From: an uncultured virus (IMG/VR IMGVR_UViG_3300027842_000121)
Taxonomy: Duplodnaviria > Heunggongvirae > Uroviricota > Caudoviricetes
DNA: 64,000 nt
IMG/VR virus record: IMGVR_UViG_3300027842_000121
Strand: one strand, 5' to 3'
Below are positions 7,435 through 60,548 of the stretch, piece after piece; positions within the stretch are counted from its first letter, which is position 1, and each line of letters begins with the position of its first letter. The notes beneath the pieces were generated by a model. That model was not told the origin of the DNA, searched no databases, and saw nothing but the letters and a program-made list of their open reading frames with translations. The position numbers and the translations under genes were made by a program.

Positions 7435-7794
7435 CTACCGCAACCCCTTCGGCACCACGCCCGGTCGCATCCACACAACCGGTTTTCCCGCTTCATTAAA
7501 AAGGTAGCGTTCCTCTGACAGCCCTTGCGAGCGCTCGTACCCCGGCAGCATCAACACGATTAGCCCCTTTGCCGGATCGAGCATCGGCCGCTCGGACGGC
7601 ATCCATATGCTGTGGTCGCGTGGGTCCATGCCGCACATCAGCGCCACCATATGAGAGTGGATGATCGGGGAGAAGCACGGCACCACCGCCCTGATCAGCA
7701 ACCCTCGCGCCTCCACCACCTGCGCGAAGGCGACATGAATGCCGTCCGGGTGCGCGCTGTAGGGTGAGCCGAGATACCAGTAGCCGTCGCTCAT
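7435..7794 (-). CDS. DUF1937 / nucleoside 2-deoxyribosyltransferase-fold protein
   Basis: YLGSPYS, FSPIIHSH, LPGYERSQGLSEE; start reassigned to ATG at 7794. Confidence 0.75.
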   Translation of the reverse strand: MSDGYWYLGSPYSAHPDGIHVAFAQVVEARGLLIRAVVPCFSPIIHSHMVALMCGMDPRDHSIWMPSERPMLDPAKGLIVLMLPGYERSQGLSEERYLFNEAGKPVVWMRPGVVPKGLR

Positions 7795-8438: not shown

Positions 8439-8552
8439 TCCTCCTACGTGGGTGCCCGGCCGGCGTGAAGCCCCGGCTGCAAAGCGCTGATGCAGCTTCC
8501 GGCATTCGCCAAGGCCACCGGGCACCCAGCCGCACCATACCCCAGCCCCGGC

Positions 8553-8580
8553 CGTGTTGCAACACGAAAATGTGTTGACA
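8553..8580. promoter_or_regulatory. divergent promoter region with 14-bp palindrome and -35 hexamer
   Basis: CGTGTTGCAACACG at 8553-8566 and TTGACA at 8575-8580, in the gap between leftward and rightward blocks. Confidence 0.55.
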
Positions 8581-8630
8581 TGAGGTGCGGGCGGCGGGTA
8601 GGGTGGCGACAGATGGGAGCGGAGGGCGCG

Positions 8631-9263
8631 ATGACGACGGTAACGATTGAGCAGATGGTGGAGCGGTGGAGCGACCCGAATGCGCGTCCGCCATTCAAGG
8701 GCGCGCTGATCGACGACGACGGCTGCTGCTGCGCGCAGGGCGACGTGCTCCGGCAGTGTGGCTGGAGCGACGAGCGGCTGCGCTCTGCCGAGCAGCGCGA
8801 GGCGGACAGATCCGTGGCGCAAGCCCTGGGCATCAGCCTAACGCAAGCGATTCTGCTGGGTGTTATCAATGATCAGCAAGATGGCTGTCCGCAGGATGTG
8901 TTGGCACATCCCGAGCGCGTGCTGGGCAACCAGGCGCCGCGTATTCTGGCTCTCTGGCGTCGCTTTGACGCGATGACGCCGCAGCAGTGGGATGCTGCTA
9001 TGGCTGCCGCCGGGGCTGCCGCCGCGGCCGCCGCCGCGGCTGCCGCTTGGGCTGCCGCTCGGGCTGCCGCCGGGGCTGCCGCTCGGGCTGCCGCCGGGAC
9101 TGCCGCCGCGGCTGCCGCTCGGACTGCCGCTCGGGCTGCCGCCGGGGCTGCCGCTTGGGCTGCCGCTAATGCCACAAACGAGGTCCAGGGCGCCGAACGC
9201 CTGCAATCATTCTTCTTCCTCCCGTTATTCGGGATCAATCACCCCAGCGAGTTCGACGGCTAA
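8631..9263 (+). CDS. Ala-rich repeat phage protein
   Basis: GGAGG at 8621, ATG at 8631; AAAW/AAAR/AAAG repeats. Confidence 0.7.
   Translation: MTTVTIEQMVERWSDPNARPPFKGALIDDDGCCCAQGDVLRQCGWSDERLRSAEQREADRSVAQALGISLTQAILLGVINDQQDGCPQDVLAHPERVLGNQAPRILALWRRFDAMTPQQWDAAMAAAGAAAAAAAAAAAWAAARAAAGAAARAAAGTAAAAAARTAARAAAGAAAWAAANATNEVQGAERLQSFFFLPLFGINHPSEFDG
9003..9167 (+). repeat. 12-nt coding tandem repeat GCTGCCGCY-NNN
   Basis: Units such as GCTGCCGCTCGG, GCTGCCGCCGGG, GCTGCCGCTTGG. Confidence 0.85.
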
Positions 9264-10348: not shown

Positions 10349-11041
10349 ATGTCTGATACAGGTGTAATCGAAAGGGCAGTAAGGACCAAGGGCGGCCGCA
10401 AACCGCCCCCGGAAATCGCGGCCGAACCGCCCCAGCGCGAGGTTGTAATTGCCCCGCCGAAGTTCGAGCGGGCGGTGATCACGATCCAAGGCGATGCGCC
10501 CTATTGCCAGCACAAGTTTTCTGCCAAAGCGCGGCAGATGATCATCGAGACCCAGATGGCGGGCTCGGTCAGCCGCAAGGGCAAGAAGCGTGAGCCGCGG
10601 GATTTCGACGCGGATTACCGTGGCGCGATGCACGTCTCGCGCGAGGGCTGGGTGGGTATTCCCTGCGCGTCGTTTCGCAATGCGATGATCAGCGCCTGCC
10701 GGCTCGCAGGCTTTGTGATGACGCGGGCAAAGCTGAGCCTGTTTGTCGAGCCTGACGGGTTTGACGCAGATGACGGCACGCCGCTGACCAGGATCATCGG
10801 GGAACCTGTGCAGAACATCAGCTATGTGCGAAATGAAACCGGCGTTGTCGATATTCGCTGCCGGCCATTGTGGGAACAGTGGTCTGCCGAGGTCTCGTTG
10901 AAATGGGACGCGGACCAATTCAGCGCAGCCGATGTTGTCAATCTGTTGTCGCGAGCCGGCGTGCAGGTGGGGATTGGCGAGGGGCGCCCCGACTCGCCGC
11001 GAGCCAACGGCGTTGGCTGGGGGACATTTGTGCTGTTGTAA
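10349..11041 (+). CDS. stand-alone RAMP/Cas7-like protein
   Basis: First strand ITIQGDAP, IPCASFRNAM (compare RAMP IPgSslKGal), terminal Gly-rich loop GVQVGIGEGRP...GWGTF; array starts 3 nt after the stop. Confidence 0.7.
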   Translation: MSDTGVIERAVRTKGGRKPPPEIAAEPPQREVVIAPPKFERAVITIQGDAPYCQHKFSAKARQMIIETQMAGSVSRKGKKREPRDFDADYRGAMHVSREGWVGIPCASFRNAMISACRLAGFVMTRAKLSLFVEPDGFDADDGTPLTRIIGEPVQNISYVRNETGVVDIRCRPLWEQWSAEVSLKWDADQFSAADVVNLLSRAGVQVGIGEGRPDSPRANGVGWGTFVLL

Positions 11042-11043
11042 AG

Positions 11044-11431
11044 GGCTGGATGGACGAGACGGGGCAGGGCCAGAAGGGGCATGACAGGCTTGACGGGGCT
11101 AGATGCGGCCGGACGTGTCTCGACACGATGAGGCAAGGCAGGCCCGGCCTGGCCTGACTAGACGAGACAGGGTAAGGCATGGCAGGCAGGGCCTGTCGTG
11201 GCGAGATGTGACGGGGCCATGCAGGGCAGGCGCGTCGGGCCTTGGCTTGGCGCGACGAGACGGGGATAGGCAGGCCCGACGAGGCGTGGCGGGGCGTCAT
11301 GAGGCTGGACAGGACGGGGCAGGCATGACCAGACGAGGCCTGGCCGGACATGACAGGACACGACGAGACGTGCCCTGGCAGGACCGACATGACAAGGACG
11401 CGACGAGACGCGGTTCGACGGGACCAGACCA
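11044..11431 (+). repeat. pentamer array 1: G(G/A)C-NN units punctuated by GGCA; probable guide-RNA precursor
   Basis: 4-nt punctuation at 11083, 11137, 11181, 11225, 11269, 11318, 11377 gives spacings 54, 44, 44, 44, 49, 59, all 4+5n. Confidence 0.9.
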
Positions 11432-11449
11432 GAAATCAGGAGGAAGGGA

Positions 11450-11899
11450 ATGACGATCGCAAGCGAGTTGCTGGATCTTGAGGATGAGGACGGATTGATT
11501 GATCCGACCACTGTAGTCGATTGGGCGCGAGATAATCCCGCAAGTGCCTTGCACGGCGCAATTGAATGGGATGACGCCATAGCGGCGCACGCGCATAGGT
11601 TGTGGCAAGTGAGGAGGCTGGTTGCGATCCATATCGTGACCGATGACGGTCAGCGGCAGCGCATCTCGCTCCTGCGCGACCGCAAGAGCGGCGGCGGCTA
11701 TCGCGACGTATCCTCGGTGATGCGCAATGACGAGCTGCGCGCCGAGGCGTTGGCGGAAGCGCTTGCCGAATTGGAGCGCTGGCAGGCTCGCTATCAGCAT
11801 CTGCGCGAGTTGGCCGATGTGTTCGAGAGCACGGCTCGGGTGCGCGCTCACGTGCCGCGCCGTGCTCGCGCGCGCGAGTCTGTACAGCCGGCGGCGTAA
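11450..11899 (+). CDS. accessory protein of unknown function between the two arrays
   Basis: AGGAGG at 11438-11443; 149 aa with VVDWARD..SALH..EWDD. Confidence 0.8.
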   Translation: MTIASELLDLEDEDGLIDPTTVVDWARDNPASALHGAIEWDDAIAAHAHRLWQVRRLVAIHIVTDDGQRQRISLLRDRKSGGGYRDVSSVMRNDELRAEALAEALAELERWQARYQHLRELADVFESTARVRAHVPRRARARESVQPAA

Positions 11900-11902
11900 A
11901 AT

Positions 11903-12009
11903 GACAGGCACGATGTGCCCGGACGAGTCTTGGCGAGGCCGGGCGCGGCGAGGCAGGTGGGACATGGCATGCCCAGATCAGACACGACCAGACACGGCAG
12001 GCCCGGATT
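11903..12009 (+). repeat. pentamer array 2, same grammar
   Basis: Punctuation at 11903 (GACA), 11952 and 11996 (GGCA); spacings 49 and 44. Confidence 0.85.
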
Positions 12010-12157
12010 TCCAGGGGATAGGGGCGCTGTGCGGCCGAGGAAGGTGGCAACCGCCATCCGCCCTTCCTCGGCAGATCGCGTGCGGTGCACGGCGGCAGGC
12101 TCGCGGCGTCCCCAAACGCGGGCTTGCCGCCACCCTATAAATAATGAGGAGATTGAC

Positions 12158-12514
12158 GTGATTTACTGGCCCGACGAACTGCCAGACTCGACCTTCACCG
12201 TCGACCCGCTTCCGATCTCTACAAACATGCTTTACCGCAGCGGCCCGCGCTTCAAAACGCAGGACTACAAGATCTGGATCGAGCGGGCGGGCTGGGAGAT
12301 CAGGGCGCAGCGGCCAGAGAAGTTACAGAGGGCGGCGCTCGCGGCGAGGATGGATCTGCCGTTCTCTCGCAAACGCGATATCGACAACATCAAGCCGATC
12401 CTTGACCTGACCAAATCGCTCGGGATCATACCTGACGACCGCTGGGTTGACCTGTTGCTGCTGCGCCGGGTGCCGGTGAGCGAGGCGCTGCGCGTCTCGA
12501 TCTGGAGACTGTGA
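12158..12514 (+). CDS. RusA-like Holliday junction resolvase
   Basis: PISTNMLY, RDIDNIKPILD, GIIPDDRWV; GAGGAG before GTG at 12158. Confidence 0.8.
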   Translation: MIYWPDELPDSTFTVDPLPISTNMLYRSGPRFKTQDYKIWIERAGWEIRAQRPEKLQRAALAARMDLPFSRKRDIDNIKPILDLTKSLGIIPDDRWVDLLLLRRVPVSEALRVSIWRL

Positions 12515-60086: not shown

Positions 60087-60548
60087 TCAGGCCTGCGCCG
60101 TCGCAACATCCTCTTTCGGGCTGCGCCCGGCACGCTCGTTCCAGCCCGCCATCCAGCCCTGCTGCCACTCCTCACGCTCCACAGTCGTTGGCACATAGGG
60201 GTTGCTCGACGCCGGATCGCCATTCATCGCCGCTCGATGCCCGGCATCATATTCCAGGCGGGCGGACGGCTTGCGCTTCTTCGGAAGCTTCATCCGCAGC
60301 ATCGCCGCCTCACCCAAGGGCGTGTCGGCCAGCATCCCAAGCTCTCGCCGGTAGCCGTCCATGGCCGCCTCTTCTGCAGCCACCGTGTCCACATCCCGCT
60401 TGCGCTCGCGGATCAGCCGGCGCAGCAGCTTCGGGTCGAAGCCGTAGGCCTTCGCCTCGATGTAAACTTCCTTGATGTCTTCGACGATCCCGGCCCGATC
60501 GCCCTCCAACAGCTCGATGCGATCGACGATCGCTTTCAGATCCATCAC
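60087..60548 (-). CDS. GapR (DUF2312)-like DNA-binding domain fused to an Rmf-like domain
   Basis: LKAIVDRIE.LE..DIKEVY.EAK..GFD; C-terminal YDAG..A..G..NPY..W..GW..G. Confidence 0.8.
   Translation of the reverse strand: MMDLKAIVDRIELLEGDRAGIVEDIKEVYIEAKAYGFDPKLLRRLIRERKRDVDTVAAEEAAMDGYRRELGMLADTPLGEAAMLRMKLPKKRKPSARLEYDAGHRAAMNGDPASSNPYVPTTVEREEWQQGWMAGWNERAGRSPKEDVATAQA

Follow-up and report, generated by a model that had tools for sequence, protein, structure and literature searches.

VIPR, a CRISPR-like gene silencer, has been described in three bioRxiv preprints of 2026 (10.64898/2026.04.26.720920, 10.64898/2026.04.26.720927, and 10.64898/2026.10.15.759431). We describe here a putative VIPR locus in a stretch of 64,000 nucleotides (nt) from an uncultured virus of the class Caudoviricetes (IMG/VR record IMGVR_UViG_3300027842_000121), the full length of which is referred to as the window. 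Positions 11087 to 11141 of the window very probably represent one guide RNA of a phage-encoded VIPR system that is aimed at serine recombinase genes.

According to the first preprint, a VIPR system comprises a RAMP protein of roughly 20 kDa (Vipr), an accessory gene (vap), and guide RNAs (vrRNAs) of 9 to 16 pentamers, each made of a conserved GGY "or a related consensus" and a hypervariable dinucleotide, NN (Y, pyrimidine; N, any base) (10.64898/2026.04.26.720920). The NN pairs follow a "1-nt skip rule"; i.e., they base-pair with DNA while every third target base, usually the codon wobble position, is skipped. Seven VIPR types are distinguished, some of which have "staggered arrays" of vrRNAs that overlap by 1 nt (legend of fig. 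S18), and the Methods report frequent internal degeneracy of the vrRNAs (10.64898/2026.04.26.720920). In the SUSP1 and P. fulva systems, as presented in the accessible parts of two preprints, one protomer is bound per pentamer, the triplet is sequestered and NN is displayed, the gapped R-loop and the non-target strand together form a triplex, and transcription is silenced on either strand without the need for a protospacer-adjacent motif (10.64898/2026.04.26.720920; 10.64898/2026.04.26.720927). Perturbation of GGY abolished silencing in SUSP1 (10.64898/2026.04.26.720920). The natural targets given in the accessible text are overwhelmingly satellites, prophages, and other VIPR systems (10.64898/2026.04.26.720920; 10.64898/2026.10.15.759431). 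One of these cases is close to the present one: vrRNA4 of SUSP1 silences the serine-type excision recombinase of the F5 satellite at the active-site region and prevents excision, and escape would require amino acid changes in the catalytic core (10.64898/2026.10.15.759431).

The locus in the window resembles the type II VIPR of SUSP1 in its small RAMP effector, accessory gene, pentamer-built vrRNAs, and lack of a self-target, as well as in a 1-nt skip that falls on wobble positions and a predicted guide against another element's serine-type recombinase, in its active-site region. With the staggered-array VIPR, as matched by the text of the fig. S18 legend (10.64898/2026.04.26.720920), it shares the 1-nt-overlap architecture, which is also present in 76 of 80 related loci. 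Both a VIPR system and a wobble-blind guide against a recombinase catalytic core are already in print, and the novelty of the present locus is modest: it lies in the array, which is staggered and GAC-rich and belongs to a large soil clade, and in a guide that would read a nucleophile motif shared across an entire recombinase subfamily. In the accessible main text of the first preprint, the words "recombinase," "integrase," and "GAC" are absent (10.64898/2026.04.26.720920).

vrRNA 2 and its matches in serine recombinase genes

The letters at positions 11087 to 11136 form ten pentamers, GGCTT GACGG GGCTA GATGC GGCCG GACGT GTCTC GACAC GATGA GGCAA, the NN pairs of which are TT GG TA GC CG GT TC AC GA AA. 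Taken as codon positions 1 and 2, these pairs translate to (F/L)-G-Y-A-R-V-S-T-(D/E)-(K/N). Both the NN string and its decoding had been given in an initial annotation made from the letters of the window, and they are correct letter for letter; the accompanying reading of the pairs as codon positions 1 and 2, with the wobble base ignored, is the same as the 1-nt skip rule in the accessible published text (10.64898/2026.04.26.720920). The block delimited in that annotation, 11087 to 11136, encloses the guide pentamers, whereas the unit itself, vrRNA 2, runs on to 11141 through a constant terminal pentamer, GGCAG, the final G of which is base 1 of the next unit. Its 11 triplets are 4 GGC, 4 GAC, 2 GAT, and 1 GTC, all of which have G as the first and a pyrimidine as the third base.

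Under the 1-nt skip rule, vrRNA 2 has the search pattern TTxGGxTAxGCxCGxGTxTCxACxGAxAA, which contains 20 read bases. Exact matches to this pattern in three collections (viral_contigs, genome_contigs, and metagenome_contigs) numbered 18, of which 17 lie in frame at the start of a serine recombinase gene (FGYARVST[DE][KN]). Both matches in viral_contigs are in frame in a large serine recombinase beginning MLVFGYARVSTDNQ; four of the five in genome_contigs are in frame, in a Rhodospirillaceae metagenome-assembled genome (MAG), in Bosea thiooxidans, and in two Clostridia-type large recombinases; and all 11 in metagenome_contigs are in frame at codons 2 to 5. The fifth match in genome_contigs, from a Nitrospirales MAG, carries TAG in place of the "Y" codon and fits the approximately one chance match that a pattern with 20 fixed bases should produce in 596 Gb. 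Both exact targets from Alphaproteobacteria belong to PF00239 (E = 2.2e-43 and 4.7e-41), the N-terminal catalytic domain of resolvases, which bears its nucleophilic serine in Y-x-R-V-S, and the other exact or near matches were called serine recombinases from their N-terminal sequences only. The edges of the match are exactly the two register shifts that bound vrRNA 2, and the constant 11th pentamer (AG) mismatches the next codon (CA, Q) in every target. The ten dinucleotides are identical to the coding strand for the first β-strand and the nucleophilic serine, with which serine recombinase genes of the resolvase/invertase type begin.

The two alphaproteobacterial targets differ in their surroundings. 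The target in the Rhodospirillaceae MAG (positions 7463 to 8092 of L241; G003:C131) is a small serine recombinase within a Mu-like prophage, where it lies between GemA and the genes for a holin, Mu Gp27, a terminase, and a Mu portal protein; it directly follows GemA in the middle region and, unlike Gin in Mu, is not located beside tail-fiber genes. The Bosea target lies beside groEL and htpG among small unknown open reading frames (ORFs), with no recognizable phage genes within 12 kb. The gapped search of alphaproteobacterial genomes proposed in the initial annotation was carried out on 401 genomes sampled from the class to which Bosea belongs and gave, at two mismatches or fewer, 16 places distributed over 13 genomes, each of them in frame at a recombinase N terminus and most of them reading IGYARVSTD[DE]; one of the places is in an unpublished genome (G243), without which there are 15 places in 12 genomes. 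The breadth of the match was estimated from the 30 best PF00239 loci in 41 alphaproteobacterial genomes, a sample that includes the Bosea gene itself and one locus of another unpublished genome (G043; score, 12). Eight of these loci agree with vrRNA 2 at 16 or more of the 20 read bases and two at 18 or more, and they are mainly of the small resolvase/invertase type.

Chance is a poor explanation for the decoding of vrRNA 2. From the NN frequencies of the array itself, the seven-pair core GG TA GC CG GT TC AC has a probability of 7.9e-10 per start position, and the array holds 79 guide NN positions. When the order of the NN pairs was shuffled 200 times, the best match on the 27.8-kb contig of the Mu-like prophage reached 16 of 20 bases, compared with the 20 of 20 observed. 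The reversed pattern was found at 0 places in the 401 genomes, compared with 16 for the real pattern, and 50 shuffled guides averaged 0.08 loci with at least 16 of the 20 bases among the 30 PF00239 loci, compared with 8 for the real guide. Neither of the refuting outcomes named in the initial annotation was obtained: near-perfect gapped hits do occur in recombinase genes, and shuffled NN strings do not match equally well.

The same annotation had seen no such recombinase in the window and had proposed a non-self target, which agrees with our results. No PF00239 match was found among the 52 scanned ORFs of the window, tblastn of two small recombinases against it detected no similarity (best E = 1.3), and the vrRNA 2 pattern has no match in its 64 kb at three mismatches or fewer. 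The best self scores of nine guides in the window were 68 to 81%, equal to those of shuffled guides, and no self-target was found by the 80% threshold used for VIPR. A guide against a non-self serine recombinase gene is further supported by the Vipr-type RAMP protein, the staggered pentamer arrays, and the conserved accessory gene described below, and its natural target would be expected on a competing mobile element.

The pentamer arrays, the Vipr protein, and the candidate accessory gene

As shown in Table 1, vrRNA 2 belongs to the first of two arrays (11043 to 11431 and 11907 to 12000), which lie on the same strand (+) as vipr. The purine-rich intergenic region 11042 to 11440 has a strong 5-nt periodicity, with a lag-5 base identity of 0.52 compared with 0.26 in the upstream gene, and a second, shorter periodic region is located at 11900 to 12010. 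A pattern of five consecutive GACNN units, with two mismatches or fewer allowed, has 15 matches in the 64-kb window, all of them on the + strand within 11146 to 12003, compared with 0.26 expected from shuffles. Manual segmentation together with a small dynamic-programming script split the pentamer regions into nine clean units of 9 to 12 pentamers and an irregular last run, i.e., about ten vrRNAs. Every clean unit has the 3' end G[GA]CAG, the last G of which is shared with the next unit as a 1-nt overlap. The triplets of all arrays in the window (n = 88) are GGC (40), GAC (27), GAT (5), and others (16); they follow G-R-Y (R, purine) with A at position 2 in about one third of the units, which departs from GGY.

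Table 1. Positions of the predicted VIPR components and of the adjoining RusA gene in the window
Feature	Position	Strand	Description and basis
vipr gene	10349..11041	+	230-aa Cas7-like RAMP protein, predicted guide-binding effector; phrog_4652, profile, fold
vrRNA 1	11043..11087	+	About 7 to 9 pentamers, 5' edge uncertain, ends GACAG; segmentation
vrRNA 2	11087..11141	+	10 guide pentamers and terminal GGCAG; segmentation, target searches
vrRNA 3	11141..11185	+	9 pentamers, ends GGCAG; segmentation
vrRNA 4	11185..11229	+	9 pentamers, ends GGCAG; segmentation
vrRNA 5	11229..11273	+	9 pentamers, ends GGCAG; segmentation
vrRNA 6	11273..11322	+	10 pentamers, ends GGCAG; segmentation
vrRNA 7	11322..11381	+	12 pentamers, ends GGCAG; segmentation
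Irregular last GAC pentamer run	11381..11431	+	Register uncertain; stops at the ribosome-binding site of the next gene
Candidate vap (accessory) gene	11450..11899	+	149 aa; phrog_15946; conserved downstream of vipr
vrRNA 9	11907..11956	+	10 pentamers, ends GGCAG; segmentation
vrRNA 10	11956..12000	+	9 pentamers, ends GGCAG; segmentation
RusA gene	12149..12514		Adjoins the second array

The same script was applied to 80 viral loci with Vipr homologues of 51 to 65% identity, and staggered arrays were obtained in 76 of them, giving 659 unique segments with a modal length of 10 units. Among the 573 segments that precede a 1-nt-overlap shift, 391 end in GGCAG and 455 in CAG; GGC opens 523 of the 590 segments preceded by a shift, and 297 of the 507 that are bounded on both sides are 9 to 12 units long. 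GGC accounts for 4250 and GAC for 253 of the 6112 triplets in these loci.

The predicted effector has 3917 homologues at E ≤ 1e-5. Its AlphaFold2 (AF2) model, built on 40 of these homologues, has a mean predicted local distance difference test score (pLDDT) of 86.9, and a Foldseek search of the PDB with this model gave 40 matches at E ≤ 0.001, in which the Csm3/Cas7 chains of type III-A, VII, and I-A complexes ranked highest (probability, 1.00; E from 3e-5). With the family profile, the sole solved protein below E = 0.001 is the "SUSP1 Vipr protein" (PDB 36pp; 36pp_D), at E = 3.5e-5 over 47 residues. The locus thus contains a small RAMP effector of the Vipr kind, with an RRM core, a G-loop, and a thumb, as judged from the model, the structural matches, and the profile match to SUSP1 Vipr. 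According to the accessible text on the SUSP1 protein, R138, D177, and R179 read the triplet, while W178 stacks on the second G (10.64898/2026.04.26.720927). In the profile alignment, R138, D177, and R179 of SUSP1 correspond to R172, E211, and R213 of the window protein, respectively, and all three are invariant in the family; W178 aligns with Gly212, and this glycine is likewise invariant in the Vipr family of the window. The G-loop of the window Vipr, GIGEGRP, is the same as that of relatives whose arrays contain 70% GGC and 4% GAC, whereas a relative with 44% identity and pure GAC arrays (L019) has GIGAGRP, with A replacing E. This difference is a possible determinant of the triplet that is read. 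Homologues annotated as hypothetical are also found in phage records, namely, in Cyanophage Cy-LDV1 (54% identity), whose vipr homologue was the sole match of a blastn search against phages, and at approximately 31% identity in 30 Mycobacterium and Gordonia phage records, including Donkeykong gp49 and Brocalys gp45. VIPR-like systems may therefore be present unrecognized in well-studied actinobacteriophages.

The 149-aa gene between the two arrays is the candidate vap, because a homologue lies directly downstream of vipr in 56 of the 80 related loci, while the RusA gene and the upstream helix-turn-helix (HTH) genes are found in none of the 80. The model of its product has a pLDDT of 92.2, and residues 1 to 95 weakly resemble winged-helix domains (VIA-align wide Z of 4.3 to 5.7, which is under the level regarded as trustworthy for this tool); Foldseek against the PDB gave no match below E = 0.8 for this protein, and a search for relatives with it alone returned one weak locus. 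The + strand arrays are thus placed in intergenic DNA flanking vipr and are accompanied by a conserved candidate accessory gene, as in VIPR. On the other hand, the Tandem Repeats Finder output for the window contains no CRISPR-type repeats, and no cas families were detected among its 52 scanned ORFs.

Very clean (GACNN)n arrays of 15 to 35 units are frequent in viral_contigs (L019, L028, L063, L073, L074, L104, and others), and about 40 of the 134 loci retrieved from this collection have a strong 5-nt periodicity. Several of these arrays adjoin Vipr homologues, with identities to the window Vipr of 44% in L019 and 21 to 26% in L065, L073, L074, and L104. One locus, L028, contains four GACNN arrays of approximately 25 units each at 560 to 1200, separated by an identical spacer of approximately 33 nt with a Shine-Dalgarno-like AAGGAGG, an architecture that is unlike both the staggered and the tailed kinds.

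Comparison with known systems, proposed mode of action, and alternatives

The resemblance of the locus to SUSP1 has clear limits. The window Vipr is only distantly similar to the SUSP1 protein, as the short profile match indicates, and its vrRNAs lack the invariable 3' tail of type II, which is a pseudoknot in SUSP1; they are staggered with a 1-nt overlap, and their sole constant 3' element is the pentamer GGCAG. Because the structured 3' tail of type II is missing and the vrRNAs abut with a 1-nt overlap, the locus is not of type II. The triplets also differ, in that A occupies position 2 in the proportion given above. The footprint of vrRNA 2 consists of 10 units that cover the nucleophilic serine at codons 2 to 12, whereas that of SUSP1 vrRNA4 consists of 6 units at residues 79 to 84, upstream of the serine, in a recombinase of 506 aa; moreover, the motif read by vrRNA 2 is common to many small resolvases and invertases and not restricted to one satellite family. 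Compared with the Cas7/Csm3 backbone of Class 1 CRISPR systems, the fold is shared, as are the binding of one protomer per repeat length of guide and the periodic breaking of the duplex by a thumb. The window, however, has no CRISPR repeats, spacers, or cas genes, and the guide is non-contiguous, with 2 bases read and 3 hidden instead of 5 read and 1 flipped.

By analogy with the SUSP1 and P. fulva systems, an operon of vipr, array, vap, and array would be transcribed on the + strand. The arrays are probably co-transcribed with vipr and vap, since no terminator was found and the arrays stop at the ribosome-binding site of the next gene. The staggered transcript would be cut at GGCAG/G junctions into RNAs of about 45 to 60 nt, among which vrRNA 2 is presumably made and loaded, with one Vipr protomer bound per G-R-Y triplet and the two following bases presented. 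The resulting filament would pair with one DNA strand through the ten dinucleotides, passing over every third base, so that codon positions 1 and 2 would be read and the wobble base ignored. A filament of ten protomers on codons 2 to 12 of the recombinase gene, whether of a resident or of an incoming element, is predicted to block transcription at its start. Escape by silent mutation would be impossible, and a change in the catalytic motif would be needed.

Several observations weigh against vrRNA 2 as a working guide to the recombinase genes of rival elements. The motif G-Y-[AVIC]-R-[VIC]-S-[TS] is spelled by none of the 659 guides from the 76 related loci; i.e., the target is not recurrent in the clade. 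The other guides have no convincing target, and that of vrRNA 9 is only a weak one: vrRNA 7 had no exact match in viral_contigs and metagenome_contigs, vrRNA 6 had none in viral_contigs, and the other nine guides did not score above shuffled guides against the Mu-like prophage contig and 63 recombinase-bearing loci. The nine NN pairs of vrRNA 9 match the peptide TVRELERAE exactly and in frame, with differing wobble bases, in all four of the viral contigs with an exact match (L244 to L247; 44 to 51% GC); these matches all fall in one family of 318-aa scaffold-like proteins (phrog_8865, E = 2e-5) and constitute one statistical event near chance expectation. Several exact matches of vrRNA 2 are gut Firmicutes-type large recombinases, and the exact matches reflect conservation of the motif and do not prove an encounter with those elements. 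Only 4 of its 11 triplets are the canonical GGC, while perturbation of GGY abolished silencing in SUSP1, and GAC makes up 27 of 88 triplets in the window compared with 253 of 6112 in relatives with the identical G-loop.

The lack of targets for the other guides and of the motif in related guides, together with the many motifs that a reader might recognize, would suit a real VIPR array in which the GYARVST match is coincidental and the true target is something else or nothing. We consider this highly improbable, given that a core of such low probability was met within only 79 guide positions, that all ten pairs and not just seven of them fit real genes (17 of the 18 exact matches being in frame in recombinases), that the reversed and shuffled controls gave 0 and 0.08 against 16 and 8, and that the match is bounded exactly by the register shifts of the vrRNA. 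Still more remote is the idea that the pentamer region is something other than a guide array, such as a replication origin, an array of sites for a DNA-binding protein, or a TRAP-like leader RNA controlling the downstream gene. The arrays do run right up to the ribosome-binding sites of the genes that follow and are situated in a replication/recombination module beside RusA; yet the neighboring protein is a Vipr homologue, the architecture recurs in 76 of 80 Vipr loci whatever the other neighbors are, with RusA and HTH genes in none, the NN code decodes to a real gene family, and Rfam has no significant match in the arrays. A TRAP-like RNA-binding array, an origin, and an omega-type DNA repeat array were dropped as candidates in view of the Vipr match and the published description of VIPR.

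The triplets raise a different doubt, namely, that vrRNA 2 is a real recombinase-directed guide in the form of a decaying or poorly loaded copy, most of its triplets being non-GGC. It could be poorly loaded because its triplets are GAC-rich despite the GIGEGRP G-loop of relatives with GGC arrays, and in the pure-GAC relative L019 the E shared by the window and the GGC clade is replaced by A. Nevertheless, every base of the ten NN pairs is intact, which speaks for selection still acting on the guide; each of the 11 units retains the G at position 1 and the pyrimidine at position 3; the G2-stacking W178 of SUSP1 is a glycine throughout the clade, so that position 2 may be read loosely; and internal degeneracy of vrRNAs is frequent according to the accessible Methods (10.64898/2026.04.26.720920). 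A decayed or poorly loaded copy is thus unlikely in our view. We give about the same small weight to a working guide with a purpose other than warfare, which might silence a host invertase or resolvase (for instance, that of a resident transposon or a phase-variation switch) or, to the advantage of the phage, control a partner element. Small serine recombinases include host invertases, and the exact match in Bosea, with groEL and htpG as neighbors and no recognizable phage genes, would fit such a role, whereas a Mu-like prophage harbors the second exact match from Alphaproteobacteria and the published natural targets are overwhelmingly satellites, prophages, and other VIPR systems.

If vrRNA 2 is a guide against recombinases of rival elements, its reach may exceed a single family. 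Because it reads only codon positions 1 and 2 of a stretch that no serine recombinase can change, one RNA of 54 nt may act as a "pan-family" guide that silences the resolvases and invertases of many unrelated elements at the level of a protein motif, with A at triplet position 2 being tolerated in the clade; we hold this extension only tentatively, at somewhat short of an even chance. Its basis is the 8 of 30 sampled alphaproteobacterial recombinase genes that agree at 80% or more of the read bases. If it is true, VIPR guides can be broad-spectrum rather than element-specific weapons, and NN-to-peptide decoding could name VIPR targets in metagenomes that lack known hosts.

In a broader context, the VIPR logic of E. 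coli and Pseudomonas phages appears to extend to a distant, probably alphaproteobacterial clade of soil phages that has thousands of relatives, as counted by the 3917 homologues. A second, independent system aimed at the catalytic core of a serine recombinase suggests a recurrent strategy, in which rivals are immobilized by silencing of their recombinase. vrRNA 2 is a natural test case for the breadth of a single non-contiguous guide, the nucleophile motif being common to an enzyme subfamily, and the many GAC triplets are one for how stringent Vipr is toward the second repeat base. The known mechanism is unaffected by either point.

Surroundings of the locus in the window

The window comes from a soil metagenome, with one DNA run as its possible source. 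It represents a podovirus-like phage or prophage, with genes for a GP7 capsid protein, a portal protein, a T7 gp14-like protein, a GH25 lysin, a Prim-Pol, and a GapR-like protein, the last of which gives a hint of an alphaproteobacterial host. Neither a resolvase nor the locus described here is present in the nearest virus record (G001). Promoter and terminator scans were not better than those of shuffled sequences, and the search against Rfam found nothing significant: its sole match at E ≤ 1, sR14 (E = 0.032; 19.3 bits compared with a gathering score of 38), lies inside vipr at 10681 to 10738 and outside the arrays.

Two further proteins of the window were noted. In the 153-aa protein encoded at 60087 to 60548 on the - strand, a GapR-like DNA-binding domain (E = 2e-20) occurs together with a ribosome modulation factor (RMF) domain (E = 4e-7), which is an unusual pairing in a phage. 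The ORF at 8490 to 9263 on the + strand, which has no Pfam family and is located immediately upstream of the HTH regulators, contains a 12/36-nt tandem repeat at 9002 to 9167 (4.6 copies of 36 nt) that encodes an alanine-rich tract, AAAGAAARAAAG...

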